Notes under the pieces: generated by a model
The model's input: the letters and a program-made list of their open reading frames with translations, nothing else
The model's database searches: none
Told to the model about the DNA's origin: nothing
Made by a program: the position numbers and the translations under genes
Shown here: in pieces, positions 1-43,624 of the stretch
Layout: every line of letters begins with the position of its first letter
Numbering within the stretch: position 1 is the first letter of the stretch
DNA from: a virus
Strand: one strand, 5' to 3'
DNA: 43,624 nt
Virus record (IMG/VR): IMGVR_UViG_3300045988_166916

Positions 1-55
1 GCCGTGCACGGATGTAGAATCGACGGGCACGTTCAATATCGGAGATCTCCATACT
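1..55. repeat. Terminal direct repeat, copy 1 of 2. It is an exact 55-bp duplicate of 43570..43624, i.e. the overlap of a circular molecule.
   Basis: Compared base by base: gccgtgcacggatgtagaatcgacgggcacgttcaatatcggagatctccatact occurs at both ends. A single ORF is continuous across the join. Confidence 0.95.
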
Positions 56-352
56 ATCTTCTGCCCAGCTGTGATCGAACTCTTCTTCTGAGTAGGGTGT
101 CAGACGAAGCCCCCGTACAAGTTCTGCTTCGTGGTCGCGCAGCTGACAGAAGAAATTGGTAACTTCTCCGTTGATTTCGTTCGCTGTGCGAATGACTTTT
201 CCGCGATAGTTTATTGAGACGACCATCGAGCCGGCGAACAGATCGACCAGGTGCGAGAATTGCGCAGGAAAATTTTGGTAGAGGTTGTCGAGCCATGTGA
301 ATTTTCCGCCGAAATAGTTGAATGCGATTTTTTTGTTGGAATTTCCGCTCAT
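1..352 (-). CDS. N6-adenine DNA methyltransferase (D12/Dam class), N-terminal part. It continues across the circular junction into 43046..43624.
   Basis: Hand translation from the ATG at 352..350: MSGNSNKKIAFNYFGGKFTWLDNLYQNFPAQFSHLVDLFAGSMVVSINYRGKVIRTANEINGEVTNFF... This matches the Dam N-terminal Y/F-GGK and F-x-G-S AdoMet motifs. It is in frame with MEISDIERARRF at the window end. The ATGA overlaps the stop of the upstream gene. It is absent from the ORF track because it runs off the window edge. Confidence 0.85.
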   Translation of the reverse strand, partial: MSGNSNKKIAFNYFGGKFTWLDNLYQNFPAQFSHLVDLFAGSMVVSINYRGKVIRTANEINGEVTNFFCQLRDHEAELVRGLRLTPYSEEEFDHSWAEDSMEISDIERARRFYIRAR

Positions 353-846
353 CGTCTTAATTTTTTGAAGTGTTCGATGATCTCCTCTTTGGTCGCTTTG
401 TGCGAAAGTTGGTTCGGACACCCTGCCGCCATCCATTTCGCGCGGATATTGTTGGCTCGCGGGATCAGGACTTTGAACCAGTCACCGGCCATAATCAGTC
501 GCTCTCCGGTTTCGGTCTGCACCGTGTCTTTCAGCCGGTCGAAGCGGATTACGACGTGAGCGATGAACCATTGTTCGCGGTCGTTGTCGCTGTTCATCGC
601 CGCCAGGGCTTTGAACATTTCGATATTTTCGCCGCAATCGTAGTAATCTTGGCTGAAACATGCTCGGGCACCCCTGTCCAGTTCCAACCACAAGGCGGCG
701 TTTTGGTCGGTATCAGCCACGAGAAAGCAACGTTTGCTGTCTCGTCCTCCGAGGATTCGCCATCCGATACCGTTCATCCATTTTTGGATTTCGATTTGCT
801 GTTGCTCGTCGGGTACGAACACCATGCACGAGATATGAAAATTCAT
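349..846 (-). CDS. Hypothetical protein (165 aa).
   Basis: Track ORF 349..972, trimmed to the internal ATG at 846 (MNFHISCMVFVPDEQQQ...). That ATG forms an ATGA overlap with the stop of 843..1253. No recognisable motif. Confidence 0.6.
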   Translation of the reverse strand: MNFHISCMVFVPDEQQQIEIQKWMNGIGWRILGGRDSKRCFLVADTDQNAALWLELDRGARACFSQDYYDCGENIEMFKALAAMNSDNDREQWFIAHVVIRFDRLKDTVQTETGERLIMAGDWFKVLIPRANNIRAKWMAAGCPNQLSHKATKEEIIEHFKKLRR

Positions 847-1253
847 TGCCGACCTCCTCTCTTTGCATAAAGTTCGACCATGCGATCTGCGTAATGGGCT
901 GCCGATTTTTCCGGATAATCGACATCTTTCGCTATTAGTGCGTGGAGCGCAGTTCCGGCGAAATATGCCCACGGCGTAAGTCTTGCCGGTTCCGTTTTTT
1001 CAATTAGCATCGGGCCGTCGCCGGTTAAAAGCCAAAGTTTGCTTACTTCGGAAAACTTTGCGACGATGCGGTTGGCCAGGTCAAGAGACACGCCGTTATT
1101 CCCTCGTTTGATTTGGTAGAGGTTTTCGCCTCGGGGCAGTCCGATGTGGCGTGCGAATGCGTTCGTCGTCATCTGGGCCATGTTGATTACGGCCTCGATT
1201 CTGTTCCAGCAGGCTCGCTTTGAGCGCGGAGTTTCTGCGTTGTCTTTGTACAT
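843..1253 (-). CDS. Helix-turn-helix DNA-binding protein (Bacteroidetes-type XRE-like HTH).
   Basis: MTTNAFARHIGLPRGENLYQIKRGNNGVSLDLANRIVAKFSEVSKLWLLTG is a typical HTH_3-like segment. ATG verified at 1253. Confidence 0.6.
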   Translation of the reverse strand: MYKDNAETPRSKRACWNRIEAVINMAQMTTNAFARHIGLPRGENLYQIKRGNNGVSLDLANRIVAKFSEVSKLWLLTGDGPMLIEKTEPARLTPWAYFAGTALHALIAKDVDYPEKSAAHYADRMVELYAKRGGRQ

Positions 1254-1270: not shown

Positions 1271-4200
1271 TTAAAATGGTTTGTCTTCAGTTTCGACGGA
1301 GGCGTCCGTTTCGTCGCTTCCGTCACCGTATGCAATCATTGAGAGACTGATGTCATATTTTTCTTTGAGAGCTGTGTAGTCGAATACCATCGCCGATGTG
1401 ACCTTGCTCTGTGCTGTTTCTGTCGCGGAAACGGCACCGCCAACGCCGAGGTGCGGAAGGAAGCGCACGCCGGATTTCGTGCCCATAAATTCCTCGGATT
1501 TTTGCAGGTATTCTTGGAGAGAGGATTTCGGAAGGAATTTTATGCCGAGATTCTTGCTGTGCATCGTGTAGAGGTCGGCCGCCGGGCCGAAATAAAGTAG
1601 GAGGTACTCGCGGCCACCGGGGAGTTCCTTGCGCTCTTTCTTTTTGGCAAAACACCAGTCCGGGCCGGATATGATTTTATATTCGCCCTTCATTTGGATT
1701 TTGCCGAGGCTGGCCAGCGAGTCGATCGACGACCAGAAGCCGGCGAGTTCGTTGGTTTGCTCGGCTTTTTCATTTTGTATCTGACAGAGCCGTGCGGCGA
1801 TTTCGAGCGTCTCGGCGTAGGTGAACGGCAGTTGCAGCCGTGTTTCGAGGATTCGGAGCGTTGCCAGCAGGGCGCTCCAGTTCTGAAGTATTCGGTCTAT
1901 GACGCCGCGCGTCAGAGTCCGGAGATCGGCGTTTGTCTGGTCGTAGGCTTCGCGGTAGCCTATTTTTACCTTGCGGCGCTCTCGGAGGAGTTCGTGTGTG
2001 AGGTGGGAGAGTCCGCGGTTGCACATGGTCTTGAACTGGTCGTAGCGTTGTTTCTCCTCCTCGCTATGTTTGGATTGGTAGAAGGTCAGCATCACGATTC
2101 GGGACATGAGGGCGTTGTCGGAGGTTGTCATTTCCTGGCCCGTGAGCACGAGTCCGCAACTGATCGCCGTCATGGTCCGCTTTTTCTTGCCGTCCATGCT
2201 CATTTTACTCCGGCCGCTGTTGTCCCATATACCTTTGAGAAATTCGACTTTCTTCGGGTCGATGTCCTCCTTGAACTCGTCGATGTGAACCACGGCATTC
2301 GATACCTCGGCGATCGCTTCGCCGAGCGAGGCTTGTGTCGCGTTCCGAAGGTTGATCGACTCGGCATTGACTTGAAAGGGAGCGACGATGGCGCGCGCCA
2401 TTTGGGTTTTTCCAGTTGCCGGTGGCCCGAACATGTCGAGAATCGGCATGTTCTCGATCGTTGCGCGCACGATGTCCGAAAATAGGGTCGTGAAGTAGAA
2501 ACAGAGGGCTATTTTCGCGTTCTCCCCGAACACGTCGATACATTGTCGGGCGTATTCGTAGAGCGTCACGGTGCTCTGCTGAACGAACACGAATTTTCGG
2601 TGCAGGTTGTAGGTGGTGGTGTCCTCGCGGGCTTCCTTGGATGCGGCCGGGAGGTAGTAGAGTTTGTCGCCGACTTTGATGAGCCCGTAGTCGTTGGCCG
2701 GGATGAACACCTCGCCATCGAAGGCGCCATTGCCCCACGCGAAAAATTCGCCTTGCTTTTGCCATCCGAGTTGCTGTATTTCGCGGGCCGTCGGCGTCTG
2801 TTCGTAGATGTATTTCTTGAGCTGCGTGTATTGCTGTTTCGCCACGACGGCTTCGATGATGTAGTTGCCTTTGCCTTCGATGTTCTTCTGGAAGTTGTCG
2901 AGTGTCGTTACCTGGTCCTGCGGTAATGTGATAAGGCATTTTTCACGGTGGATGTTCTCGATCTCGAACATGCGGTAGGAGGCAGGTCCGTCCCAAATCA
3001 GCACGATCGGGCGGATGATGAAATTCGTCCACGGCATCGCGTTCCCGACCTTAGAGATTTGTCCGTAGTAGCAGTTGTTCTTGACGTAGAACCCGTATTT
3101 TTCCACCAGGTCGGCCTGCTCCTGCTTTTCTTCGCGGATTGCTTCGACCTGGCGCTTGTTTTTCAGCCGGTAGTAGGTCTCGTTCCATATTTTACCCTGC
3201 TTGTCCTCTTTGCCGAATTTGTCGAGGTACATGCGGGCGAGTGTCTCGTCGTAGAAAATGAGCAGGCCACAGATGTAGTTGATGACATCGAGCCGGTCAT
3301 TCTGCGACATGACGCTCCCGACCTTGGTCTGATACATGAAGTCCACGAAGTCGGCCGAATTTTCGGCCATACACTCGTCATAGGATTTTGCGGCCTCGTA
3401 TTTGAAATACTCGTCGGCATCCTTGGCGTCTTTTCCGGGGAGTATCATCACCCGCACGTTCAGCCCTGCCGCCGTGAGAGCTTCGCCATGGCTGACGACC
3501 GCCTTCTGTCCGGCTGTGTCGTTGTCGCCGATGATGACAACTTTCGAGACGATGCGCTTTATCATTCCGATTTGGGTACTCGTGAGGGCGGTTCCCATCG
3601 GTGCGACGGTGTTCTGCTGGCCGATCTTCGCCATGCGGATCACGTCGGGATTCCCTTCGACGAGGTTCAGCACGTCGCGTAAGGCGGCGATGCGTTGTGC
3701 CTCGAAGTACCCGAATAGAATGTCGCCCTTCTTGAAGATGGGCGTTTCTTTGGTGTTGATGTATTTGGGCGGCTCTTTCCCTTCGGCGTTCTTCTTTGAG
3801 TTGATGGCCCGGCCGGTGAAACCGATGACGTTGCCCGTCTGGTTGCGGATCGGGAACATGAGGCGCTGGGTGAAGGCGTCGTATATGTCCCCGTCTGCGT
3901 CGCTGACTTTGATGAGTCCGGCCTTGATGAATATGTCGAGGTTTTCGTGCTGGTCTCGGATGTGGCGGAGTAGAGTTTTCCGGCCGGGGGCGTAACCGAT
4001 GCACCACTCCTCGATGGTTTCCTCGTCCCAGCGTCCGGTGGCGTATTTCTGCGCCGGGTCAGATTGTCGGTACATGGACCGGAAAAATTCGAGTGCGATG
4101 TTGTTGGCGCGAAAGAGTTGATCGCGTTCGAACCGCTTTGCCAATTCTTCGGGTGTCGGCTCTTTCTCCTCCCATTTGATGTCGTAGCGGTTTCCGAGGT

Positions 4201-4453
4201 GGCGGCATGCTTCTACAAAGTTCATCGCGTACCGTTCCATGACGAAGGAGATCGGCCCCCATGTTTTGCCGCACCCGAAGCAATGTGCGGTTCCCCGGGT
4301 TGTCGATACTTTGAAGGAGGGTGTTTTCTCGCCATGAAAGGGACAGCAGCATTCGTAGTGAGTGCCGGCCCGTTTCAGTTCGAGCCCCTCGTCCTGGAGC
4401 ACCCGGAGAATGTCGAGACCGTTGAGCTGTTGTATTGTTTCTTGAGGTATCAT
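1271..4453 (-). CDS. DNA primase/helicase fusion: CHC2 zinc finger, TOPRIM domain and C-terminal P-loop NTPase.
   Basis: CCCPFHGEKTPSFKV...HCFGCGKTW is a CHC2 zinc finger. LVEGNPDVIRM and VVIIGDNDTAGQKA are the TOPRIM E and DxD motifs. MFGPPATGKTQMA is a Walker A. Start set at the ATG at 4453 (MIPQETIQQLNGLDIL). The 83-codon upstream extension in the track is Arg/Pro-rich and looks non-coding. Confidence 0.9.
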   Translation of the reverse strand: MIPQETIQQLNGLDILRVLQDEGLELKRAGTHYECCCPFHGEKTPSFKVSTTRGTAHCFGCGKTWGPISFVMERYAMNFVEACRHLGNRYDIKWEEKEPTPEELAKRFERDQLFRANNIALEFFRSMYRQSDPAQKYATGRWDEETIEEWCIGYAPGRKTLLRHIRDQHENLDIFIKAGLIKVSDADGDIYDAFTQRLMFPIRNQTGNVIGFTGRAINSKKNAEGKEPPKYINTKETPIFKKGDILFGYFEAQRIAALRDVLNLVEGNPDVIRMAKIGQQNTVAPMGTALTSTQIGMIKRIVSKVVIIGDNDTAGQKAVVSHGEALTAAGLNVRVMILPGKDAKDADEYFKYEAAKSYDECMAENSADFVDFMYQTKVGSVMSQNDRLDVINYICGLLIFYDETLARMYLDKFGKEDKQGKIWNETYYRLKNKRQVEAIREEKQEQADLVEKYGFYVKNNCYYGQISKVGNAMPWTNFIIRPIVLIWDGPASYRMFEIENIHREKCLITLPQDQVTTLDNFQKNIEGKGNYIIEAVVAKQQYTQLKKYIYEQTPTAREIQQLGWQKQGEFFAWGNGAFDGEVFIPANDYGLIKVGDKLYYLPAASKEAREDTTTYNLHRKFVFVQQSTVTLYEYARQCIDVFGENAKIALCFYFTTLFSDIVRATIENMPILDMFGPPATGKTQMARAIVAPFQVNAESINLRNATQASLGEAIAEVSNAVVHIDEFKEDIDPKKVEFLKGIWDNSGRSKMSMDGKKKRTMTAISCGLVLTGQEMTTSDNALMSRIVMLTFYQSKHSEEEKQRYDQFKTMCNRGLSHLTHELLRERRKVKIGYREAYDQTNADLRTLTRGVIDRILQNWSALLATLRILETRLQLPFTYAETLEIAARLCQIQNEKAEQTNELAGFWSSIDSLASLGKIQMKGEYKIISGPDWCFAKKKERKELPGGREYLLLYFGPAADLYTMHSKNLGIKFLPKSSLQEYLQKSEEFMGTKSGVRFLPHLGVGGAVSATETAQSKVTSAMVFDYTALKEKYDISLSMIAYGDGSDETDASVETEDKPF

Positions 4454-4500
4454 CTTTTCGCGTTTTGGAGGGGCCCCCTCGGACACCCCCCCCGATTGTA

Positions 4501-4707
4501 TTATTCGAGAGTTTCGATTTGGCGCAGGATTATCCCTGCACGGTGATATTGTTCGTAGGTTTCGCTTTGAGGGGCGAACCCGGCTGGCAAGCGATTTTGG
4601 AGCAGCCCCGTTTTGAAGGCCATGATCGCCCGGCGGATCGTGTCGAACTCGTCGCTCGTCAAATCCATGATTGAGACGCGGCCGTTGCTGTCTTTGTCGC
4701 AATACAT
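4501..4707 (-). CDS. Hypothetical small protein (68 aa).
   Basis: The track start at 4713 is GTG. The ATG at 4707 lies 2 nt after the stop of 4710..4919. Confidence 0.5.
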   Translation of the reverse strand: MYCDKDSNGRVSIMDLTSDEFDTIRRAIMAFKTGLLQNRLPAGFAPQSETYEQYHRAGIILRQIETLE

Positions 4708-5697: not shown

Positions 5698-6084
5698 ATG
5701 TTTGATTTTAAGTCGTTTAGAAAAATAAATAATCTGAAACAAAGCGAGGCTGCTGAATATTTCAGTTGTACGCAGGCTTTTATTTCACGGATTGAGAGGG
5801 GAATAAGCCCGGTTCCAAGCCATTTTATAACTAAAATAGAATCTGAGGGGCGTTATAAGATGCCGGATATGGTTCCAAGTCTGAACACGGATTTGAAAAT
5901 TGAGATGCCGCGCGAGGTTTTTGATAAGATGGCTCAGTTGATCGACACGGTTTGTTCGCAACAGGATGTTATTGCGCAACAGCAAAGTGTTATAAATAAG
6001 GTACTTAACCCCCCCCCTCGCAATGAGGCTTCCGTGGATGGCGCAGATTCAGAGGGAAATAGAGGCGCTTCCGCAGTTGGATAA
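5698..6084 (+). CDS. XRE-family HTH transcriptional regulator, candidate CI-like phage repressor.
   Basis: NNLKQSEAAEYFSCTQAFISRIERGISPVP is an HTH_3 motif. The gene is divergent from the early operon and co-oriented with the integrase. Confidence 0.7.
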   Translation: MFDFKSFRKINNLKQSEAAEYFSCTQAFISRIERGISPVPSHFITKIESEGRYKMPDMVPSLNTDLKIEMPREVFDKMAQLIDTVCSQQDVIAQQQSVINKVLNPPPRNEASVDGADSEGNRGASAVG

Positions 6085-7010: not shown

Positions 7011-8192
7011 ATGTTGTCAGTTGAAACTGCGCGAAATTCCGCGCTAAACGAAATTCTTTCTTTCACTTATCCGAAACTACACACCGGCTCCTGCTGGTTC
7101 ATTTCCTTTTATGCGTTCGACCCGGCGAAGGGTGAAATGCGGCGCAAACGGATCAAGATAAATTCGGTGGGGAATGCCTCACAGCGCCGGCGGTATGCTG
7201 CGCAAGTTTGTCATCGTCTTTCTACGAAACTCGAAACGGGGTGGAATCCGTGGGTGGAGGCAGAGGCGGATTATACCTATAAACTATTTTCGGATGTATT
7301 GGTGCACTACCGAAATTACCTCCGGAAGTTACAGGATGACGGTGTTCTCCGAAAATCGACCGTACATGGCTATAATTGTTCGGCGGGTATCATGGAACGT
7401 TGGAATGCGCAACAAGCATCGCCCATTCGTTATGTCTATCAGTTCGACCGTTCGTTTTGTGTGCGCTTTCTGGATTACGTCTATGTTGAACGGGGCAATT
7501 CGCCGACTACGCGCAACAACAATCTGGCGTTTCTCCGGGAGTTCTCGTCATTTCTGGTTCAACACTTATATCTGAAAAGTAAACCGACGGAAGGGCTGAA
7601 GAGTATCGGAAAGGGTGCTGGCAGTAAGAACCGGACGGTCATCGCGCCGGCGGATATGCAACGTCTCCATGACTGGCTTGACGCACACAACCGGCCGTTC
7701 CTGCTGGTCTGCTATTTCCTACATTATATGCTTATCCGTCCGAAGGAGATATGTCGTCTTCGCTTGCAGGACATTAATGTCGCTAAACAAACGGTCTATA
7801 TTGACGGCCAGATTTCGAAAAATAAAAAATCGGGGGTGGTTACGCTTCCGACGCCGATTCTGGAAATGCTCGTCGATTTGGATTATTTCAATGCTCCGAC
7901 TTCGTATTATATTTTCTCTACCGGGTTCCGGCCGGGGCCTAAGTTGTGCAGCGAACGGAGTTATCGCCACTATTGGAATAACGAAATTGTTCCGGCGTTG
8001 AAATTCCCGAAGGAATACAAGTTCTATTCGCTGAAGGATTCGGGTATCACGGATATGCTTCGGTCGGGACTTGACCCTCTTTCCGTTAAGGAGCAGGCGC
8101 GGCACTCGTCGCTTCAGATTACGGATGCCTATACACCACGGGATGTTTTGAACGCTAATCCACGCCTTCAGAGTTACAAAGGTATCTTATAA
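7011..8192 (+). CDS. int: Tyrosine recombinase / phage integrase.
   Basis: 393 aa. LIRPKEICRLRLQDI fits the first catalytic Arg region. EQARHSSLQITDAYT fits the R-H...Y C-terminal catalytic region. The N-terminal SAM-like domain is typical of Bacteroidetes integrases. Confidence 0.9.
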   Translation: MLSVETARNSALNEILSFTYPKLHTGSCWFISFYAFDPAKGEMRRKRIKINSVGNASQRRRYAAQVCHRLSTKLETGWNPWVEAEADYTYKLFSDVLVHYRNYLRKLQDDGVLRKSTVHGYNCSAGIMERWNAQQASPIRYVYQFDRSFCVRFLDYVYVERGNSPTTRNNNLAFLREFSSFLVQHLYLKSKPTEGLKSIGKGAGSKNRTVIAPADMQRLHDWLDAHNRPFLLVCYFLHYMLIRPKEICRLRLQDINVAKQTVYIDGQISKNKKSGVVTLPTPILEMLVDLDYFNAPTSYYIFSTGFRPGPKLCSERSYRHYWNNEIVPALKFPKEYKFYSLKDSGITDMLRSGLDPLSVKEQARHSSLQITDAYTPRDVLNANPRLQSYKGIL

Positions 8193-10880: not shown

Positions 10881-11192
10881 CTAAACTAATTCCGCCTCGA
10901 TGTTTCCGGAGGCAGGGATCGGTCCGAACCAACATTCGCCGTTGTTGCTGGCTTCGATATAGAACCGCTCACCTACATGGTCTGTTAACTCTTGGCCTAT
11001 CATGCTGGATAATTCGTTGAACGAGACTCGAACCGTCAGATCGTCTAATACATCGAACCAGCCAAGCCACGAAGTAGTGAGTTCGAACATAAGCTCTATA
11101 TTTTCGCCAGCTTCAACTCCGCATGCGTGCACGTCGATGATGACCTCCCTTACGTCAGTCCCCCCCCCGACTGGGAGATCGAGATCGTACAC
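10881..11192 (-). CDS. Acidic 103-codon ORF. It is either an independent small protein or the frameshift-dependent C-terminal extension of the fibre at 11150..12451.
   Basis: The track start is GTG (minus-strand gtg tac gat ctc...). The first ATG is at codon 35. The ORF overlaps the fibre by 43 nt, and both frames cross the same G9 tract. Confidence 0.45.
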   Translation of the reverse strand: MYDLDLPVGGGTDVREVIIDVHACGVEAGENIELMFELTTSWLGWFDVLDDLTVRVSFNELSSMIGQELTDHVGERFYIEASNNGECWFGPIPASGNIEAELV

Positions 11193-35517: not shown

Positions 35518-36390
35518 TTAGTGGTTGTATTGTGCCCGGATGGCGGCGTTTTCGATGCACTCGTCGAGGGTCATCATTCCGTTGATGAGTCCGAGGTCTT
35601 GAGCCTCGTCCGGGTGGAACATGGCTCCGGAGAATACACCGGGTGCGTCGGTTTTGATATTCGGCCGTCCGGCCTTCACGTCCTGATGAAATTGTGCGAC
35701 GGTATGGGAGAGTCCTTTCTTGATGAGCGCATATTCGCCTTCGAGCGCTTGGCGGTAGCCGAGGTTTTTGTCTGTGCTTTCATCTGCGTAAACCGTGATG
35801 ACGGTATAGCCTTCCTTTTTCAGTTTTTTCGTGTCGTCAACGATGTGATACAATGCACCGATGCTCCCGACCTCGGAAAGCGGATTGTCGCAGAAAATCG
35901 CGTCGCATTGCGAGGCCGTCCAATAAGCCAGAGACGCACAAAAGTCTACATGTGCGATGATCGGCTTGCCGAGTGCCTGCGTTTGGCCGATGGCCTCTTT
36001 GAGTATGGATACCGCATTCGCGGCGCCACCCCCGGAGTCGATGTCGAGGACGATGGCGCAGATCTCCGGATCATCTGCGGCTCGTTTGATTGCACGGGCA
36101 TAGGTTACGGCTCCTATCGTGAAGCAGGAGTCGTATTTGGTGATTGTTCCGACAATCGGAATGACGGCTACCTTCGACGGCTTGGATTCGGAACCCGGAC
36201 CTACTTGATCCGAAAGGTTGACTGCCGAGGCAGAAAATTCGAAGAAGGGGCGGGCCTCTCCGACTCGTTCGCCGTGAAGAAAAGAAAGCGCCACCGGGAG
36301 CAATGATTCGTAGTCGTGTACGAACCATTGCCCGCGGCGGACATCAGAAAGTAGCTGAAGCGGATTCTGGGTTGTTTCTATGCGGAACAT
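35518..36390 (-). CDS. S49-family (SppA/ClpP-fold) prohead protease.
   Basis: VAVIPIVGTITKYDS...AIVLDIDSGGGAANAV...KPIIAHVDFCASLAYWTASQCDAIFCDNPLSEVGSIGA matches the SppA signature. Start set at the ATG at 36390 to avoid overlapping 36410..36778. Confidence 0.85.
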   Translation of the reverse strand: MFRIETTQNPLQLLSDVRRGQWFVHDYESLLPVALSFLHGERVGEARPFFEFSASAVNLSDQVGPGSESKPSKVAVIPIVGTITKYDSCFTIGAVTYARAIKRAADDPEICAIVLDIDSGGGAANAVSILKEAIGQTQALGKPIIAHVDFCASLAYWTASQCDAIFCDNPLSEVGSIGALYHIVDDTKKLKKEGYTVITVYADESTDKNLGYRQALEGEYALIKKGLSHTVAQFHQDVKAGRPNIKTDAPGVFSGAMFHPDEAQDLGLINGMMTLDECIENAAIRAQYNH

Positions 36391-37879: not shown

Positions 37880-38269
37880 TTATTTTCTGCGCTTTCGCTT
37901 CGTCTGGCGGTTCATGCGCCGTTGCAACCGGGTCGGCTGATGCTTGGCCCGGGACCTGCGCGGCTTCGGCCGGGGACGTGCCCGGAGTGGTGGATAGTAA
38001 CACGGTATCCCTCGGAGTGCCTGTATCGCATCGTTTAATTCTTGTATGGTGCAAGATGCTGCCCTTATGGTGGTCGATAATGCTGATAAGTTGGCTAATA
38101 CGTTTTTGAGGTTTTGAGAGAGCGGATAGCAACTGGAGGTCGCTGCAACAATGCCTCCGGGTGTAGTGGTGAGTTGATTACAGGGTTGGGATTTTCGCAA
38201 AATCTCTTGATTCCTATCCATTGCGGCCCATAGATGGAGAATGAAGGCGACGAACGTTTTCATTGTCAT
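37880..38269 (-). CDS. Hypothetical protein with a strongly basic C-terminal tail.
   Basis: 129 aa with an ATGA overlap to the upstream gene. The C-terminus is RARPRPKPRRSRAKHQPTRLQRRMNRQTKRKRRK. Confidence 0.5.
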   Translation of the reverse strand: MTMKTFVAFILHLWAAMDRNQEILRKSQPCNQLTTTPGGIVAATSSCYPLSQNLKNVLANLSALSTTIRAASCTIQELNDAIQALRGIPCYYPPLRARPRPKPRRSRAKHQPTRLQRRMNRQTKRKRRK

Positions 38270-38826
38270 TTATTGGTTTGTAGAGTTTCCGTTATTTGTG
38301 CGGTAATGTCGCGTCGTTTGCAGGGGATGCAATCGAGCAGGCTCGGGATTTTGTAGAGCAGGTCCGCGTATTCAAAATAATAGGTCCGTTCGAGTTGGTG
38401 GTTGTAGCGTTCGATCAGCTGACATGCCGCGTAGAGGAGAGAGACAGCCTCCTCGACACCGTGCAGTCCGTGCCCGCTTTTTATGCGGAAATATAGGTCA
38501 TCTACTCGGTCGAGGAAGCCTCTGGCAATTTCGGGCTTGAACCTGGCAAATATCCGGTAAGCCGGTTCTGCTACGGAAAAAATAATCTCTTCGGCCTGCC
38601 GGTGGCGGCGCTTGATTTCGTGGCGAAATTGTCCGGCTTTTTCCAGTTCTTCTTGGAGGTCTCCCATAATGTAGGGTAACGTTTGGATCAGCACGAGCAT
38701 ATCGACTGCCGTGTCTGCCATGTGTCGTTCGACTTCAGTCGGCCGCTTCGGTAGCCGGTGCGGGGTCATGGCTTGGATGGCCATGCGGTGGCGGAGCTGC
38801 GCCGCTTTGATTTGCCGGGACGTCAT
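38266..38826 (-). CDS. Hypothetical protein.
   Basis: 186-aa ORF with ATGA overlaps at both ends. Confidence 0.55.
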   Translation of the reverse strand: MTSRQIKAAQLRHRMAIQAMTPHRLPKRPTEVERHMADTAVDMLVLIQTLPYIMGDLQEELEKAGQFRHEIKRRHRQAEEIIFSVAEPAYRIFARFKPEIARGFLDRVDDLYFRIKSGHGLHGVEEAVSLLYAACQLIERYNHQLERTYYFEYADLLYKIPSLLDCIPCKRRDITAQITETLQTNK

Positions 38827-39047
38827 ATAATCAGGCGTGAAGGGTAGGCGGCTATTTCGGGACTCGGGGATGCCGTTTCCTGTAATTCCCGTTCAAACTC
38901 TTCGATGCGTGCTTCGTCCCGTCTCACGGCTATCCGGGGTATGAAGCAATGGACTCGGATTCCGGAGTCGGTTTTTCCCTCCCAGATACGGGCCGGAATT
39001 CCGTTCAGGGTAACGATTTTGTCGGTGTTTTCGATTGTGATTTTCAT
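38823..39047 (-). CDS. Hypothetical small protein (74 aa).
   Basis: ATG verified. The sequence looks protein-like (MKITIENTDKIVTLNGIPARIWEGK...). Most of it (38893..39047) is overlapped, out of frame, by the tail of the MTase ORF. Confidence 0.5.
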   Translation of the reverse strand: MKITIENTDKIVTLNGIPARIWEGKTDSGIRVHCFIPRIAVRRDEARIEEFERELQETASPSPEIAAYPSRLII

Positions 39048-40752
39048 AGTTGGACTTTTTGTGTTGTTTTTCAGGTGATTTTATTTCGTCGATAGCTGCG
39101 GCTGTTGCCTCACTCCATGCGGTCGCTACCTGGGTGACGACGGCATTGCCGAGGAATTTCTTCTGTTCCTCCTGCGATCCGATAAGCACGTAATCGTCGC
39201 CGAATCCCTGGATGCGTTTCATCTCGGGGATGCGCAGCATTCGCATCGTGACGTCAACGATGCCATAGAGGATGCAGAACTCTTTCACGCGCACCATTTC
39301 GGGAATGTCGTCCGGTTTGATTGTCCAGGCAGGTACTCCCTGCTCGATGGATACCAGATAAGGCGGACGTTTGTCCATCCGTGCGATCAGCGTGAAACAA
39401 GGCGCATCCACAGAGCCGCCGGCGGACCGGTATTGCGGATTCAGCAGGTAGTGGGCGTTCACGATACGCTGCTTGGGGTTCGTCAGCAGCGCGCCGGTTG
39501 GTTCGTTCACTCCGGAGAGTTGCCCGCCGCCGGAATAGTAGTTGGTGATAAATGGCTGCACCAACTGGAATCGGTCTTTTGTTGTCAGCGTAGGGGCCGG
39601 CCGTTCGACGGGTGAGTTGTATCCGTTTCCGTAGTATGCCGATACGAAGGCGTGGTGGTCGATTGTCGTAACGGTTCCGGCCGGGCCGTCAATGGGGATG
39701 TTCTTGCCCGCAGGCTGTCCGCTGAACTGCTTGGACAGGAAATCTACACGGGCTACGCCGAGCCGGTTTTGTGTCGCCACGGTCGGGCATGGAGCGTCGA
39801 GTCCCGGAGCGATGTATTTGCCGGACTGGTTTCGGGAGTTGTATTTGACGAGGAAAGCGTCTTTGCCTCCTGCGACGAATTTCACCAGCCCGGCGTGGAT
39901 GCGGTCGAGTGTCGCTCCGACGAGTTGCCGGCGGCGATCGAAGATTGACTCACCGCGATCCTCGAAGTCGAGGCATTCCCGCACGGGCCGCCACGGCGCG
40001 AGCGGTTCGGTGAAAAGGTCGCGTGTCTGCTCCGGATTTCGGGCGTGCGTCTGCCGCGGCCACGCCATCGGCAAATCCGGCCGCGCGAACTGCCCGAAAT
40101 ATCGTACCCGGGATGTGTAGGCCCCGAAGTCGGCCGCATTGAGCACACGATGTTCGAACCGGTAGCCGTGGGCGCATACCTCCTCCACCCAGCGGCGGTA
40201 GTGTATTCCCTTGTGTTCGGGGTCGGGAACCCACACCGGGGCGACGGTTGTTATCCGTCGCTTGCGGTCGTGTTTGATGTCGAGCGGACAGAAGGCCGCA
40301 CCGTCTGGGCCGACGCTCTCCTTGACGATGAGTGGCCCCCATTCCATGAACTCAACGACATTTTCGATCTGGATATAGTCGGGGCGCAGCTCCTCGATGT
40401 AGCGGAAAAGGTGATCGGCCAGCGTGCGGCTGTCGGCGTCGCGCGACATGCCGCCTTTGGCCCGGGAGTGGTTCGTGCATTCCAGCGAGGCCCAGAGCAC
40501 GAGTTTCGCACCGGGGTGCTTCATGCGTTCTCGGGCGACGTGTACTTTCATCGGTCCGAGGTCGAGTGTGCGAATGTCCTCGGTGAAGTGGCGCGTGTGC
40601 GGGTGGTTGGCCGCATGCGAGAGGATCGCATTGGCATCGTGGTTGACGCATGCGATGACTTTCGCACACTTGCGACCGTCGATCTGTGCCCGCTCAACGC
40701 CCGTCGAGGTTCCGCCGGCACCGCAAAAAAGGTCGATGTAAAGGAGTTGCAT
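38893..40752 (-). CDS. DNA cytosine-5 methyltransferase (long, 619 aa).
   Basis: From the ATG at 40752: LYIDLFCGAGGTS is motif I. SLECTNHSRAKGG is a phage-type variant of motif IV. IQIENVVEF is motif VI. FLGNAVV is motif X. The last ~60 codons (SPEKQHKKSNYENHNRKHRQNRY...) are low-complexity. Confidence 0.85.
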   Translation of the reverse strand: MQLLYIDLFCGAGGTSTGVERAQIDGRKCAKVIACVNHDANAILSHAANHPHTRHFTEDIRTLDLGPMKVHVARERMKHPGAKLVLWASLECTNHSRAKGGMSRDADSRTLADHLFRYIEELRPDYIQIENVVEFMEWGPLIVKESVGPDGAAFCPLDIKHDRKRRITTVAPVWVPDPEHKGIHYRRWVEEVCAHGYRFEHRVLNAADFGAYTSRVRYFGQFARPDLPMAWPRQTHARNPEQTRDLFTEPLAPWRPVRECLDFEDRGESIFDRRRQLVGATLDRIHAGLVKFVAGGKDAFLVKYNSRNQSGKYIAPGLDAPCPTVATQNRLGVARVDFLSKQFSGQPAGKNIPIDGPAGTVTTIDHHAFVSAYYGNGYNSPVERPAPTLTTKDRFQLVQPFITNYYSGGGQLSGVNEPTGALLTNPKQRIVNAHYLLNPQYRSAGGSVDAPCFTLIARMDKRPPYLVSIEQGVPAWTIKPDDIPEMVRVKEFCILYGIVDVTMRMLRIPEMKRIQGFGDDYVLIGSQEEQKKFLGNAVVTQVATAWSEATAAAIDEIKSPEKQHKKSNYENHNRKHRQNRYPERNSGPYLGGKNRLRNPSPLLHTPDSRETGRSTHRRV

Positions 40753-40754
40753 GG

Positions 40755-40910
40755 CTATAATCCTTTCATTGTTTCTTTGAAAAACTTTTCGTCTTCGATA
40801 CAATCCAGACATCGGCCGTCGCCGATCAAAATTTCGTTGCTTTCTTCTCCGCAGGCCCTGCAATGTCCCGAGGTCAGCTCATCGGGTGTATAAATAGTTT
40901 CTGTTGTCAT
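40755..40910 (-). CDS. 51-aa zinc-ribbon protein (CxxC...CxxC).
   Basis: MTTETIYTPDELTSGHCRACGEESNEILIGDGRCLDCIEDEKFFKETMKGL. The ATGA overlaps the ASCH gene stop. Its own stop lies 2 nt before the C5-MTase ATG. Confidence 0.55.
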   Translation of the reverse strand: MTTETIYTPDELTSGHCRACGEESNEILIGDGRCLDCIEDEKFFKETMKGL

Positions 40911-41269
40911 AATCTTTTTCCTAATTTGATGATAAACGTTGTGTGTTCTGGCGCTCCCCACTCGGGCCGGCCTCGGCCGATCGTGATGCCTTTGCATTCG
41001 AATGTCATCCTGCGACGGGTATAACCATAGGAGAAGCAGACGGCGTTGAACTCCTTGAATCGAGGCCCCATTGCCGCTGTACAACCAGCGCATCGGTTCA
41101 CACCTTCTTCGAGACATTGACCGTCGTCGGTCGGCATATTGAACATAGGGAAACAGTCCAATAATCTTGTCATCCAATACGTCACAATCGCCCGGTATTC
41201 CTCGGGTTTCTCTCCACGCTCGATCATTTCGTACCATTCCTTTTTGAGTGGCAGATAGAGTGTTTTCAT
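40907..41269 (-). CDS. ASCH (PUA-like) domain protein.
   Basis: From the ATG at 41269: MKTLYLPLKKEWYEMIERGEKPEEYRAI...VCFSYGYTRRRMTFECKGITIGRGRPEWGAPEHTTFIIKLG fits the ASCH pattern. The ATGA overlaps the radical SAM gene. Confidence 0.55.
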   Translation of the reverse strand: MKTLYLPLKKEWYEMIERGEKPEEYRAIVTYWMTRLLDCFPMFNMPTDDGQCLEEGVNRCAGCTAAMGPRFKEFNAVCFSYGYTRRRMTFECKGITIGRGRPEWGAPEHTTFIIKLGKRL

Positions 41270-42099
41270 TTTCCGAAATATTTTTTGCAGTTGCAGTAGG
41301 TGATTGTCGGGTTGGCCCATTGCCCTTGGAACTGGCGCCATATTTTGTCGAATTTTCCCTCCCGATCTCGGTAGAGCATGGCGAAAGGCATAAATCCTGC
41401 CCGCCATGCCTCGCCCATCCGCTTCTGGGCTTTCTCGAAGGTATCGCCTTTGTAGCCGATCAGCACATAGCAGCGTAGCCGGTTGCCTGCCTTGGTTAAG
41501 CCTGCATCGAGGAGCATTTTTCCCGCGGCTTTAAGCGGTTCGAGGTCGTTGGGTGTATCGTATGCGAAAAAGAGCGAATCGGGGTGTAACTCGTATAGCC
41601 GTTCGGCCATCGCCGGGGTCATAAGCGCGGCCTCCAGTCCGCCGACAAACTGCGGTCGATGAGGTTGCCGTGCCAGCATGGCGAACACTTCGTCGATATG
41701 TTCGGGCGAGCAGGCAAGCAGATTGTCGTCTTGGACGATCCATCCGTCTCGCACGGGTAACTCCCGGAGCTGACCGCCTTCGCGTTTGGGCACGGCGCAG
41801 AACCAGCAGCGGTTCGGACACCCGCGCGAAGTGATGACGTAGCCCTTCTTCATGTACATTCCCGGAACGAACTCCCCGCCGGGCTCGTTGTAGGCAGGAC
41901 CGCCGATCTTCACCGGGGCAACTCGTTCCCATTGTTTGGCGGCCCACTCCGCCCACGGAATGTCCCACGTGAAAGCGACCGATATATGTACCTCGTCGGC
42001 CTCGTCGAACAGCGACGGCACCTCGTGGATGCGTACCAGTTCGTCATCCGGCGTCGCATTGGTCTTGGTCGGGAATACCCGAATGATTTTTGCCTCCAT
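41266..42099 (-). CDS. Radical SAM enzyme.
   Basis: VITSRGCPNRCWFCAV contains the CxxxCxxC [4Fe-4S] motif. 277 aa. Confidence 0.75.
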   Translation of the reverse strand: MEAKIIRVFPTKTNATPDDELVRIHEVPSLFDEADEVHISVAFTWDIPWAEWAAKQWERVAPVKIGGPAYNEPGGEFVPGMYMKKGYVITSRGCPNRCWFCAVPKREGGQLRELPVRDGWIVQDDNLLACSPEHIDEVFAMLARQPHRPQFVGGLEAALMTPAMAERLYELHPDSLFFAYDTPNDLEPLKAAGKMLLDAGLTKAGNRLRCYVLIGYKGDTFEKAQKRMGEAWRAGFMPFAMLYRDREGKFDKIWRQFQGQWANPTITYCNCKKYFGK

Positions 42100-42101
42100 C
42101 G

Positions 42102-43043
42102 TCAGAATAATTCTTGTGTCTCATCCGGCAGTTCAACACCCATACGCCGGAGGGCGTGGCGGAGTGTGTGGCCGTTGTTGGAGTAATTCATTGCCATTTT
42201 GTAGAGTTTCGGATGCAGGGTGTAAAGTACCCGAAAGCGACTCCCCCCCCCGAGGTGGGCGCCGAAACCGCAGAATACGCAGCCGGTGCGATCTATGCCC
42301 GGTACGTCGTAAATTGGGCAGTATGACACCGACAATTTGCGGATGTAGGCCCAACAGTCCGCATTCGTCCATATCGACAACGGAGCGCTGTGTGTCTTGC
42401 GCGGGTCGTCTGAAAAGGAGTTGCAACCGCCGTGACTGATATATGTAATCTCTCGTCGTTTACTTTCTCCTGCCATAGTTCCAACCATTGGGAGGCTGAG
42501 TGTTGAAGCGTTATATGTTGCAAAAGGTCTTTTTTTCAATATCTCGCAACATTTTTCCGAGGTCATGTACGGTTCTGTGCTTAGATAGCGCCATTTTTTC
42601 GCAAGTATGCCTTGCTGGCGTTTCCCATCGCCATAGAGCCGATAGTTTCTCAGTTTTTCGCTTTTGGATGTGCGGATGTCTCGCACGGCATGCGCCTGCT
42701 CTTTGCTGACCAACGGGAACCCGTATCGGGCGATCACTTCCCGCGGCGTCAGTTGCGGCCGGATGATCGTGACGTTGGGTGTGTGTCGAACGAAGCTGAC
42801 GATTTCCGGCCATTCGTTGCCCGTCGAACAGAACACACCCGGCATATCTGGATCGACGAAGCGTCGGGCGATGTCGAGTAGTACTGTTGAGTTCAGTCCG
42901 CCGGAAAATGAGACGTAGGGCTTGCGGCCGTGCTTTTCACAGTAGTTTATGAACGCCTCGATTGCTCCGACGGTGTGGTCGATTTTCTGCTCCAAAGGCC
43001 ACGCTTGGCGGGCGTGGAGGTCTGAAAGAGTGATTTTGCCCAT
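42102..43043 (-). CDS. PAPS-reductase-like / PP-loop ATP pyrophosphatase family protein.
   Basis: YVSFSGGLNSTVLLDI is a PP-loop (SGGxxS). A C-terminal Cys pair occurs in RTGCVFCGFG. The track start at 43049 is TTG, so I used the ATG at 43043, 2 nt after the Dam stop. Confidence 0.75.
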   Translation of the reverse strand: MGKITLSDLHARQAWPLEQKIDHTVGAIEAFINYCEKHGRKPYVSFSGGLNSTVLLDIARRFVDPDMPGVFCSTGNEWPEIVSFVRHTPNVTIIRPQLTPREVIARYGFPLVSKEQAHAVRDIRTSKSEKLRNYRLYGDGKRQQGILAKKWRYLSTEPYMTSEKCCEILKKRPFATYNASTLSLPMVGTMAGESKRREITYISHGGCNSFSDDPRKTHSAPLSIWTNADCWAYIRKLSVSYCPIYDVPGIDRTGCVFCGFGAHLGGGSRFRVLYTLHPKLYKMAMNYSNNGHTLRHALRRMGVELPDETQELF

Positions 43044-43045
43044 GA

Positions 43046-43624
43046 TCAAAAAAGTTTTTGCGCACGCACGGGCGGTTCATAGTTGCACCATACGCACTCT
43101 TGCATGACCGTTCCCGAGCCGTTCACAATGTTGCTACGAATGTTATTGCGCTTGAACGGAAACTTTACTTTGTGCCAGTCCGCATAGAGCCGATTTGTCA
43201 GCGGGCAATCGTAACTGCTCACCATGGCCATCCCTTCTATCCGGTGTAGGCGTTCGGCCAGTCGCTCGTGATCTTCATCCGTGAAGTCGAAGCGATAATC
43301 GCCATTTTTATTATGGCCGCCTCGGCTTTCCAGAGGATAGGGCGGATCGCAGTAGAAGAAAGCGCCGGGGAAATCAATTCGGTCGATGGCTTCCATGTAG
43401 TCGCAGTTCATGATCTGAAAGTTGTTGCGAATCTCTGCCGCTACTTCATGCAACTTTTCTACTCCGTTTCTCCATCGGGAAACACCCTCGCCTCCTTGTG
43501 CGTTGATATGTTGTTTGCACATGTGCCAGCCTTTTTTCTGTCTTTGGGCCCCGAGTCCGAAAAAGGATTGCCGTGCACGGATGTAGAATCGACGGGCACG
43601 TTCAATATCGGAGATCTCCATACT
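43046..43624 (-). CDS. N6-adenine DNA methyltransferase (D12/Dam class), C-terminal part of the gene that begins at 352 across the junction.
   Basis: FFYCDPPYPLE is the DPPY motif. The frame is continuous with 1..352 through the 55-bp overlap, giving about 291 aa once the duplicate is removed. Confidence 0.85.
   Translation of the reverse strand, partial: SMEISDIERARRFYIRARQSFFGLGAQRQKKGWHMCKQHINAQGGEGVSRWRNGVEKLHEVAAEIRNNFQIMNCDYMEAIDRIDFPGAFFYCDPPYPLESRGGHNKNGDYRFDFTDEDHERLAERLHRIEGMAMVSSYDCPLTNRLYADWHKVKFPFKRNNIRSNIVNGSGTVMQECVWCNYEPPVRAQKLF
43570..43624. repeat. Terminal direct repeat, copy 2 of 2 (identical to 1..55).
   Basis: Same 55-mer as 1..55. Confidence 0.95.

Follow-up and report, generated by a model that had tools for sequence, protein, structure and literature searches.

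The six-gene cluster of predicted nucleic-acid-modifying proteins in this 43,624-nucleotide viral sequence (the whole stretch analysed, hereafter the window) is best explained as a mosaic anti-restriction/modification island with a facultative gene pair, one gene encoding a radical SAM enzyme (rSAM) and the other a PAPS-reductase-like protein of the lambda NinC type; we give this reading, taken as a whole, a probability of roughly 55%. Of its parts, the division of the island into separable cassettes is quite probable, and DNA modification by the rSAM and NinC-like genes is put forward tentatively. Specifically, the cluster would lie in a temperate phage's early (replication-side) operon, with two orphan methyltransferases (MTases; Dam-like N6-adenine and large C5-cytosine) bracketing single-gene cassettes for a NinC-type PP-loop/[4Fe-4S] protein, a compact rSAM, an ASCH-like protein and a zinc ribbon, which may come and go independently via recombination at short boundary repeats. 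The island site has primase and HTH genes on one side and head genes on the other. The phage, a phage of a gut bacterium, is considered temperate because it encodes an integrase and a repressor-like HTH protein; its host probably belongs to the Rikenellaceae (Alistipes-like).

Window bases 1-55 are identical to 43570-43624, so the contig is circular and 43,569 bp long, its ends overlapping by 55 bp. Once this overlap is trimmed, the Dam gene crosses the circular junction (352 to 43046, 291 aa), while an untrimmed end-to-end join breaks its frame. The features are as follows.

352..1 / 43569..43046, minus strand: Dam-like D12-class N6-adenine DNA MTase (PF02086, phrog_56, DPPY in FYCDPPYPLE)
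43046..43624, minus strand: 3' part of the Dam-like gene (bases 43570-43624 repeat 1-55, the assembly overlap)
1..352, minus strand: 5' part of the Dam-like gene (ATG at 352; runs on over the circular junction)
42102..43043, minus strand: PAPS-like, NinC-type PP-loop protein, 313 aa (phrog_424, PF01507, SGGLNS PP-loop)
41266..42099, minus strand: compact radical SAM enzyme, 277 aa (phrog_9298, cluster motif C94PNRC98WFC101)
40907..41269, minus strand: ASCH-like small protein, 120 aa (phrog_625, GxKxxExR motif, variable Cys-rich insert)
40755..40910, minus strand: CxxC...CxxC zinc-ribbon ORF, 51 aa (ORF and motif)
38893..40752, minus strand: large C5-cytosine DNA MTase, 619 aa (PF00145, phrog_116, motif I FCGAGG, ENV)
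349..846, minus strand: 165-aa ORF upstream of Dam (4-nt ATGA overlap with the Dam start)
38823..39047, minus strand: 74-aa ORF (other frame, overlaps the C5 MTase 3' tail)
43028..43060, minus strand: direct repeat, left copy, imperfect (Dam end/PAPS start; bounds the PAPS cassette)
42081..42116, minus strand: direct repeat, right copy (PAPS end/rSAM start; bounds the PAPS cassette)

The preliminary description had reported six minus-strand genes joined by 4-nt overlaps or 2-nt gaps, and both the coordinates and the junction letters agree (from Dam to C5: TGA-TC-ATG, TGA-CG-ATG, ATGA, ATGA, TAG-CC-ATG). More than six genes belong to the coupled run, since the 165-aa ORF joins Dam by its ATGA overlap. 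At the other end, the last ~50 codons of the C5 MTase overlap the next ORF, the 74-aa ORF, which is followed by ATGA-coupled ORFs at 38826..38266 and 38269..37880. The 165-aa ORF had no PHROG match, and the other three ORFs had no family matches. ATGA-type coupling is ordinary for this phage, with 18 of 47 same-strand junctions in the genome at most 10 nt long or overlapping.

The domain calls for the Dam, C5, PAPS-reductase-like and radical SAM proteins all stand on profile matches, supplemented for the rSAM by motif and model. Dam matched PF02086 (E 1.7e-20) and phrog_56 (E 1.9e-57), and the C5 MTase PF00145 (E 1.2e-22) and phrog_116 (E 8.5e-71), with the catalytic Cys in LECT. The ASCH/PUA-like call is tentative: the GxKxxExR motif and phrog_625 point to it, but Pfam and PDB matches were sub-threshold. 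The zinc-ribbon ORF, which had no family match in Pfam, PHROG, NCBIfam or PADLOC scans, is confined to the closest relatives (L008 and L009).

The six genes do not behave as one conserved unit, as the preliminary description had supposed. One relative (L008) carries an exact deletion of the PAPS gene, with blastn identity to the window of 98.9% and 97.2% on its two sides; the two aligned segments overlap by 33 nt, corresponding to the direct repeat, whose copies match at 26 positions (a score reached in 0 of 500 shuffles). Another (L088) lacks the rSAM, ASCH and zinc-ribbon genes and joins PAPS straight to a 95%-identical C5 MTase, and two more (L010, L011) have the order PAPS, rSAM, C5 without the ASCH and zinc-ribbon genes. 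All four keep their neighbouring genes at 95-99% identity. Further arrangements were rSAM, PAPS, C5 (L014-17), Dam, rSAM, PAPS, C5 (L046, L081) and Dam, PAPS, C5 (L090-96).

Across a wider set of relatives, a PAPS-like gene was nearby in 15 of 55 rSAM lineages and clearly missing in 22 (flanks of at least 5 kb), and an rSAM gene was nearby in 17 of 75 PAPS lineages and clearly missing in 32. When one genome per species was considered, a PAPS-like gene lay within 8 kb in 9/80 rSAM loci and any MTase in 27/80, with no constant partner among these 80 loci. Nonetheless, at least six independent configurations, drawn from several PAPS subfamilies, place the two genes side by side, and the pair is adjacent in 8 of 15 lineage/order combinations, on the same strand every time. 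Three PAPS subfamilies that are mutually ~24% identical all lie 0-6 nt from the rSAM, and distant cases include L141 (Dam-rSAM-PAPS) and Dulem virus 39 (C5 MTase-PAPS-rSAM). Adjacency in 6 of 13 events, against a chance expectation of 0.1, gives a binomial P of ~9e-4, although lineages are not fully independent. The pairing is thus above chance, yet facultative, which bears out the anticipated co-occurrence of the two genes as a tendency and not as a rule; the proposed triad with ASCH is not conserved, ASCH homologues being found in only ~5 of 170 loci.

These observations bear on the model, drawn from the preliminary description, in which the PAPS-like, rSAM and ASCH proteins, accompanied by the MTases, act as successive steps of one pathway installing a single complex DNA hypermodification. 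Tight translational coupling and enriched rSAM/PAPS adjacency favour it, as does the fact that neither protein matches a characterised metabolic enzyme, the best NCBIfam matches of the PAPS-like protein being archaeal PAPS-reductase-like groups (PRK13795, PRK08557). However, near-identical natural variants lack one or more of the genes, each partner is often found without the other, ASCH is rare, and the window proteins scanned include no base-exchange or glycosylase enzyme. We consider such a pathway improbable.

The mosaic-island reading is consistent with the company that these genes keep, since both were seen in islands of orphan DNA MTases in the compared loci. Among 85 PAPS-family loci, N4/N6 (ParB-fused) MTases lay within 10 kb in 37 and were adjacent in 15, and one locus (L142) has the order TerS-rSAM-ParB/MTase-PAPS-SAM synthetase-like-ParB/MTase.

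By sequence, the PAPS-like protein (PF01507, E 2.3e-17; phrog_424, E 1.4e-42) can be assigned to the lambda NinC type of PP-loop proteins. It aligned with lambda NinC (nin region orf-290; PHROG 424, 'phosphoadenosine phosphosulfate reductase') at 95% probability (hhalign, E 3e-8), sharing a homologous PP-loop core (VSFSGG...), a TG..PE nucleotide motif and a C-terminal CxxC, and both are non-structural phage genes of an early region. Differences are an identity of only ~30% over 173 aligned columns, additional helical inserts and a variant PP-loop in the window protein, and nin-region genes around ninC that include no rSAM or MTase. Whereas the family consensus is an ATP-type SGGKDS, the window allele reads SGGLNS, which could weaken ATP pyrophosphatase chemistry. 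Invariant cysteines of the family (C165, C166, C207, C255, C258) include an APS-reductase-like iron-sulfur motif, CC(165/166)...C255xxC258.

Phage cysH genes are treated in the viromics literature as sulfate-reduction genes (PMC10914622), and under this common annotation the PAPS-like gene would be a sulfur-assimilation auxiliary metabolic gene and the rSAM unrelated cargo. The Pfam PAPS_reduct match agrees with this, as do the PDB matches of the AF2 model (pLDDT 93), of which APS/PAPS reductases were best, followed by the FAD-synthase PAPS domain, TtuA and [4Fe-4S] LarE. Assimilatory APS reductases (P. aeruginosa 2goy, M. tuberculosis 7lhr; E ~1e-6 to 1e-7, target TM ~0.63) have [4Fe-4S] ligands that line up with the four-cysteine motif, C255 and C258 falling on the GCEPC cluster cysteines of 2goy. 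However, identity is 16-19%, the catalytic Cys of the C-terminal ECGLH is missing (no cysteine follows C258), the family PP-loop is of the ATP type, and NCBIfam scores of 14-35 bits lie far under the cut-offs of 154-254 (CysH, APS-reductase and PAPS-reductase models). CysH, APS reductase and CysD were rejected as identities on such scores. Given also a window without other cys genes and a genomic context of DNA MTases, a sulfur-assimilation role is very unlikely.

It is equally hard to credit the pair as a divergent version of the QueC/QueE 7-deazapurine pathway or as a phosphorothioation module of the Dnd/Ssp kind. PP-loop and rSAM pairing generally resembles QueC/QueE; DndC, SspD and BrxP share the PAPS-reductase fold, an ATP-type PP-loop (with an Fe-S cluster in DndC) and a DNA-modification context (phosphorothioation, BREX type 4). 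Only the N-terminal PP-loop region gave weak PADLOC matches, to BrxP (E 3.7e-10 over 63 residues, 63/779 profile positions) and SspD (E 2e-4), and DndC, SspD, BrxP and QueC were rejected as identities. QueC, QueE, DndC and DpdA were unmatched in Pfam, NCBIfam and PADLOC, and the rSAM fold matched AprD4/RimO, not QueE. The preliminary description had seen no TGT/DpdA, which a scan of 20 further window proteins confirmed, also finding no FolE or QueD; DndA/B/D/E, SspA/B/C and BREX partner genes are likewise missing from the window proteins scanned. DndC, SspD and BrxP are host defence genes, unlike this phage-borne, putative counter-defence cargo.

The rSAM matched PF04055 under the Pfam cut-off (E 1.7e-5), and the call was kept because of the invariant C94-x3-C98-x2-C101 and an AF2 model (pLDDT 88.9) matching radical-SAM structures (AprD4, RimO and LAM folds in Foldseek). 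The model has a small N-terminal flavodoxin-like domain followed by a partial TIM-barrel core; CxxxCxxC and GGLE are invariant, and invariant cysteines are limited to C94, C98, C101 and C130. No close characterised relative of this family (phrog_9298) was found. AprD4 (6fd2) and RimO (4jc0) share its small alpha/beta N-domain and CxxxCxxC-bearing barrel (E 3e-6 and 7e-5, probability 1.0), but at a query TM of 0.48-0.58 and 12-16% identity; the phage protein is ~170 residues shorter and lacks a TRAM domain and auxiliary-cluster cysteines. On this model-based resemblance, their function is not transferable to the phage rSAM.

What the two enzymes act on is less clear-cut. The best structural analogues (the methylthiotransferase RimO/MiaB class and, past the reductases, the tRNA thiolase TtuA) act on protein or tRNA, and no DNA- or RNA-binding domain was recognised in either protein, both of which count against the main reading of DNA modification. 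The NinC-like protein and rSAM might instead act on host or phage tRNA/rRNA and merely reside in an accessory-gene island; thiolation or methylthiolation could, for example, blunt anticodon-nuclease defences or tune translation. The combined use of PP-loop, Fe-S and rSAM chemistry typifies tRNA modification and RNA is the usual ligand of ASCH/PUA-like domains, the corresponding island of LoVEphage contains an RtcB-type tRNA ligase, and DNA MTases are missing from the surroundings of many rSAM loci. Against this, neither protein has a fused THUMP, PUA or TRAM domain, the rSAM lacks the second Fe-S cluster motif that methylthiotransferases need, ParB-fused and C5 DNA MTases recurrently adjoin PAPS-like genes, and no tRNA genes were found in the window. 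We regard an RNA target as unlikely.

Alternatively, the rSAM, alone or together with the NinC-like protein, may have a non-nucleic-acid target (a protein, cofactor or small-molecule immune signal) or drain SAM/ATP, as a general-purpose fitness or anti-defence gene of mobile elements in anaerobes. It is 51-81% identical across anaerobe phyla (Bacteroidota, Clostridia, Spirochaetes, Synergistetes, Dehalococcoidia, Planctomycetes), mostly occurs alone, and adjoins topoisomerase-III genes in ICE-like contexts; one homologue carries an intein, an element often hosted by highly conserved enzymes. However, PAPS-like adjacency is enriched, the rSAM frequently lies amid DNA MTases, and nothing in the analysis indicates a specific alternative substrate, making this quite unlikely. 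Still, most rSAM loci have neither a PAPS-like gene nor any detected MTase, and therefore the rSAM's main job may be unrelated to methylated DNA.

Within the mosaic island, the methylases would protect phage DNA from host restriction by methylating it beforehand. The NinC-like enzyme would bind an adenine nucleotide, with its Fe-S cluster activating or thiolating nucleic acid as in DndC or TtuA, and the rSAM would subject nucleic acid to a SAM-dependent radical step; either would be able to work alone and, when both are present, they may share a target. Phage hypermodification islands of the TET/JBP or 5-hmdU type, in which an MTase is the foundation, offer a conceptual analogue only, in that an enzyme beside a DNA MTase could elaborate a methylated base; they differ in that there is no homology, glycosyl/amino-acid transferase and kinase genes are missing from the window, and the rSAM is often found where there is no MTase. 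By this analogy, the rSAM could activate a methyl C-H bond oxygen-independently in phages of anaerobes. The island, with its rSAM and NinC-like genes, is a useful lead toward an uncharacterised nucleic-acid modification, but not the fixed six-gene pathway of the preliminary description.

Six genes on the minus strand, which the preliminary description had presented as one unit installing a hypermodification, proved on direct reading to be joined at every junction by the ATGA overlaps or two-base gaps reported for them. The coupled run is longer than six genes, an upstream ORF being likewise joined to the gene for the Dam-like methyltransferase (MTase):

846..349, minus strand: upstream ORF, 165 aa, ATGA overlap with the Dam-like gene
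352 across the junction to 43046, minus strand: Dam-like MTase, 291-aa ORF
43043..42102, minus strand: PAPS-reductase-like protein (PAPS), 313 aa
42099..41266, minus strand: radical SAM enzyme (rSAM), 277 aa
41269..40907, minus strand: ASCH-like protein, 120 aa
40910..40755, minus strand: CxxC...CxxC zinc ribbon, 51 aa
40752..38893, minus strand: C5 MTase, 619 aa

Across the window genome, 18 of 47 same-strand junctions overlapped or measured at most 10 nt, so close spacing is this phage's usual style and no special mark of the cluster. An uninformative promoter and terminator scan, whose coverage leaves out Bacteroidota promoter types, found no minus-strand promoter- or terminator-like sites inside the six genes; its single weak promoter-like match (37659-37632) lies downstream of the cluster.

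Direct comparison of the window's ends showed that positions 1-55 exactly duplicate 43570-43624. This 55-bp terminal duplication marks the contig as circular and resembles the k-mer overlaps that circular assemblies typically leave; its removal gives a true genome size of 43,569 bp. Any gene across the junction is frameshifted as long as the overlap stays untrimmed: a naive end-to-end join breaks the Dam frame, and trimming restores one intact ORF. Since it carries integrase and HTH genes, the genome is temperate; holin and glucosaminidase genes are also present. The island is placed between the primase and HTH genes and the head genes:

7011..8192, plus strand: integrase
5698..6084, plus strand: HTH
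4702..1271, minus strand: primase
1253..843, minus strand: HTH
36390..35518, minus strand: head protease

Elsewhere in the window, a 433-aa protein (11150-12451, minus strand) matched Mtd_N, the N-terminal domain of the major tropism determinant. Such domains occur in targets of diversity-generating retroelements; neither a reverse-transcriptase YxDD ORF nor a template/variable repeat was found in the window genome. A 60-nt direct repeat in the tail/structural region (13687-13746 and 14455-14514; 72% identity, 768 nt spacing) could stem from domain duplication between neighbouring structural genes.

We compared the island with 80 viral loci collected via rSAM, about 85 collected via the PAPS profile and 80 species-representative genome loci, scoring gene families with an iterated HMM for each family (used instead of single-linkage BLAST clustering of neighbours, in which fused ORFs made the PAPS, C5 and ASCH families merge).

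Gene orders in comparison loci (L-numbers).
L008: Dam-rSAM-ASCH-zinc ribbon-C5
L009: PAPS-rSAM-ASCH-zinc ribbon-C5
L010, L011: PAPS-rSAM-C5
L014-17: rSAM-PAPS-C5
L046, L081: Dam-rSAM-PAPS-C5
L090-96: Dam-PAPS-C5
L088: PAPS-C5

The blastn comparison of L008 with the window showed a deletion that removes exactly the PAPS gene, flanked by identities of 98.9% and 97.2%, and the two aligned segments shared a 33-nt overlap, an imperfect direct repeat ('...LF-stop + ATGG(AG)GCAAAA(A)TCA'). The repeat copies, at the Dam/PAPS and PAPS/rSAM junctions, agree at 26 positions, a score reached in 0 of 500 shuffles. In L088, PAPS (84%) and C5 (95%) were kept and the rSAM-ASCH-zinc ribbon segment was absent. 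With rSAM lineages defined as 90% clusters and absence scored only for flanks of at least 5 kb, a PAPS-like gene was nearby in 15 of 55 rSAM lineages and clearly missing in 22; conversely, 17 of 75 PAPS lineages had rSAM nearby and 32 had none. Among the 80 species-level loci, PAPS lay within 8 kb of rSAM in nine and any MTase in 27, and rSAM had no constant neighbour family. The six genes are thus not one unit, given the losses in L008 and L088 and the mostly unpaired lineages. Nor did the suggested triad of rSAM, PAPS reductase and ASCH survive a survey of co-occurrence, as L010/L011, L014-17 and L046/L081 pair the first two without ASCH. The best-supported interpretation is a mosaic DNA-modification or anti-restriction island, whose cassettes are individually dispensable and swapped at short boundary homologies.

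The pairing of rSAM with PAPS is not random. Where both genes were present, they were directly adjacent in 8 of 15 lineage/order combinations and on the same strand in all 15; at least six independent adjacencies among about 13, with a chance of ~0.1 each, give a P of about 9e-4, an approximate value as the lineages are partly dependent. Three PAPS-reductase-like subfamilies, each with a PP-loop and CxxC and only ~24% identical to one another, were found 0-6 nt from rSAM, on either its upstream or its downstream side. The distant phages L141 (Dam-rSAM-PAPS) and Dulem virus 39 (C5 MTase-PAPS-rSAM) show the pairing again. DNA MTases are also frequent around PAPS: of 85 PAPS-family loci, 37 had a ParB-fused N4/N6 MTase no more than 10 kb away (adjoining in 15), and 22 had C5-type MTases. 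We regard rSAM and the PAPS-like protein, a NinC-like PP-loop protein with a putative Fe-S cluster as described below, as a facultative pair within the island, again as the best-supported reading.

Several individual loci deserve mention. In an unrelated phage (L142, 6764-13027), the order is HNH, small terminase (TerS), rSAM, ParB/MTase, PAPS-like, archaeal-type SAM-synthetase-like and ParB/MTase; a SAM-synthetase-like gene adjoins PAPS in seven loci. In the Bacteroides phage LoVEphage (L003, 3957-4062; OY731433.1, 57700-57805), the deposited annotation has a barrnap '5S ribosomal RNA' separating the PAPS-reductase gene from rSAM. Two database proteins combine island components, P0190 (528 aa; PAPS-like plus C5 MTase N-terminus) and P0020 (352 aa; rSAM plus PAPS2-type C-terminus), and are unreliable as Rosetta-stone fusions, the former looking like a read-through and the latter like a deletion.

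By sequence, the PAPS-like protein is placed among the lambda NinC-type phage PAPS-reductase-like proteins (phrog_424, E 1.4e-42 across residues 13-296; lambda NinC, hhalign probability 95%, E 3e-8). The preliminary description had called it a PAPS-reductase-like PP-loop protein, and this is borne out by the match to PF01507 (E 2.3e-17) and by the AF2 model (pLDDT 93), for which the top 17 Foldseek matches were APS/PAPS reductases (E 2e-7 to 1e-5), followed by the PAPS domain of FAD synthase, TtuA and [4Fe-4S] LarE. The modelled structure has the PAPS-reductase alpha/beta fold, and a common fold is no proof of common function. Viral cysH is treated as a sulfur auxiliary metabolic gene, a routine reading of phage cysH/PAPS reductase (PMC10914622). 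For the present protein, a CysH-type PAPS/APS reductase acting in sulfate assimilation is rejected on two counts. First, it scored 14-35 bits against NCBIfam cut-offs of 154-414 for CysH, APS-reductase and CysD models (NF002537, 34.6 vs 154; TIGR02055, 26 vs 235; TIGR00434, 25 vs 165). Second, there is no cysteine C-terminal to C258, so the protein lacks the ECGLH cysteine that sulfonucleotide reductases use for catalysis. When 41 homologues (53-99% identity) were aligned, five cysteines (C165, C166, C207, C255 and C258) proved invariant. Of these, C255xxC258 falls on the GCEPC Fe-S ligands of the APS reductase 2goy in a profile alignment, and CC(165/166)...C255xxC258 are candidate cluster-ligating cysteines.

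A role like that of DndC, SspD or BrxP in Dnd/Ssp-type systems was likewise rejected: no full-length profile matched, and partner genes were absent among the window proteins scanned. PADLOC matched BrxP over residues 23-85 only (a 63-residue PP-loop stretch) and SspD marginally (E 2e-4, no qualifying stretch), and the DndC and QueC models among the NCBIfam profiles gave no match. The family consensus of the PP-loop is SGGKDS (98 of 124 loci). The window's clade, 15 of the 41 aligned sequences, has SGGLNS instead (window 42893-42910, residues 45-50), so that the ATP-pyrophosphatase signature has lost its Lys as well as its Asp, yet the protein is still conserved; the variant did not correlate with the presence of rSAM.

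The rSAM protein (phrog_9298) scored 25.5 bits against PF04055, under the Pfam cut-off of 29.5. Its assignment to the radical SAM superfamily, made initially from CPNRCWFC, is upheld by the cluster motif C94-x3-C98-x2-C101 and the GGE-like motif G153-G154-L155-E156 (GGLE), both invariant in 38 sequences, together with a partial TIM-barrel fold. The only further invariant cysteine is C130, and hence an auxiliary-cluster motif is absent. The AF2 model (pLDDT 88.9) has a small N-terminal alpha/beta domain and an rSAM core, and matched AprD4, RimO and lysine 2,3-aminomutase in Foldseek with a probability of 1.0 and a query TM of 0.44-0.58, a predicted likeness at the level of fold only. Foldseek against BFVD returned no match at E <= 0.001, and when PDB sequences were searched using the profiles of rSAM and of the ASCH-like protein, all matches were motif-level or sub-threshold. 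A queuosine or 7-deazapurine role was rejected: in agreement with the preliminary description, neither QueC nor QueE models matched in Pfam/NCBIfam at E <= 0.1, and FolE, QueD and TGT/DpdA were absent among the window proteins scanned.

The rSAM family comprises at least 7,908 proteins (1,863 representatives at 50% identity; E <= 1e-3), with 51-81% identity across Rikenellaceae (the closest), other Bacteroidales, Clostridia, Spirochaetes, Synergistetes, Dehalococcoidia and Planctomycetes. It is very conserved, carried by mobile elements and largely limited to anaerobes. The carriers appear to include integrative conjugative elements besides phages. In L214 and seven other genome loci, from several Firmicutes genomes, rSAM lies ~1.2 kb from a topoisomerase-III-like gene, and in seven genome loci it adjoins a second radical-SAM-type protein, Gp37/Gp68-like. 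Long homologues of rSAM, scanned with Pfam for informative fusions, yielded just an intein/HNH insertion: P0367 (550 aa) is interrupted shortly past the cluster motif by an intein that carries an HNH homing endonuclease, as the splicing-domain match covers residues 125-361.

The ASCH-like protein matched phrog_625 (E 1.8e-18) and has the GxKxxExR motif (G19, K21, E24, R26). Pfam ASCH matched one of 37 members, below threshold (E 0.079), and the best PDB match, 1xne, which we take to be an ASCH-superfamily structure, was also sub-threshold (E 0.56) and confined to the N-terminal 28 residues.

Both methylases belong to the classes first proposed for them, and they are ordinary orphan methylases. 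The D12-class Dam-like N6A MTase matched PF02086 (E 1.7e-20; 74 bits vs a cut-off of 22) and has the DPPY catalytic motif, as CDPPYP; its TIGR00571 score (79 bits) is under the subfamily cut-off of 114.85, making it a Dam-like relative rather than an E. coli Dam equivalog. The C5-cytosine MTase matched PF00145 (E 1.2e-22) and phrog_116 (E 8.5e-71), and has motif I (FCGAGG), the catalytic cysteine (LECT, with the Pro replaced) and ENV (in QIENV). Because the C5 MTases of relatives are shorter (566-590 aa, e.g., L046 and L019), the 619-aa form may be a read-through past a lost stop. Its last ~50 codons (window 38893-39047) encode a basic, low-complexity tail and overlap, in another frame, a 74-aa ORF (39047..38823) that starts a further ATGA-coupled run. 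At the DNA level, cultured phages gave only distant matches, confined to this gene (Porphyromonas and Bacteroides phages).

What the facultative pair might do can be proposed from its fold relatives. From DndC, TtuA and APS reductase we infer that the NinC-like protein would bind an adenine nucleotide, and that its predicted cluster would serve activation or sulfur transfer on a nucleic acid; rSAM would perform a SAM-dependent radical step. It is conceivable, and in our judgement rather unlikely, that the two form the catalytic core of a not-yet-described, oxygen-independent nucleic-acid modification. Such a system might thiolate a base or the backbone, or might functionalise by radical chemistry the base methylated by the neighbouring MTases, and would provide restriction escape for phages and mobile elements of strict anaerobes. 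A serious alternative is that both proteins act on an RNA or tRNA target, to which the TtuA- and RimO-like folds, the RtcB-type tRNA ligase gene 1.2 kb downstream of rSAM in the LoVEphage island and the large number of rSAM loci that lack MTases all point. Clean natural deletions of the L008 and L088 types make the question of DNA modification directly approachable by comparing nucleosides in a mass spectrometer.

PHROGs already lists every component family, and gut metagenomes abound in near-identical islands, so this type of island is itself already known; the locus offers an uncharacterised, experimentally tractable enzyme pair and no categorically new system. Phage PAPS-reductase homologues have been said to 'deserve further investigation', with instances in lambda, marine phages, archaeal viruses, type IV-B CRISPR, BREX type 4 and Dnd (PMC11437467), and our literature search turned up no study that characterises NinC, phrog_9298 or an rSAM/PAPS-reductase pair. 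The locus supplies sequence-level grounds against a sulfonucleotide-reductase role for this PAPS-like subfamily, with its gene set in DNA-methylase islands, and it also draws attention to an rSAM family recurrently paired with NinC-like genes. An undescribed modification, if real, would give the lambda NinC or viral 'cysH' family its first function; if the genes modify DNA, an anaerobic route to DNA/RNA hypermodification would be added and a widespread annotation corrected.
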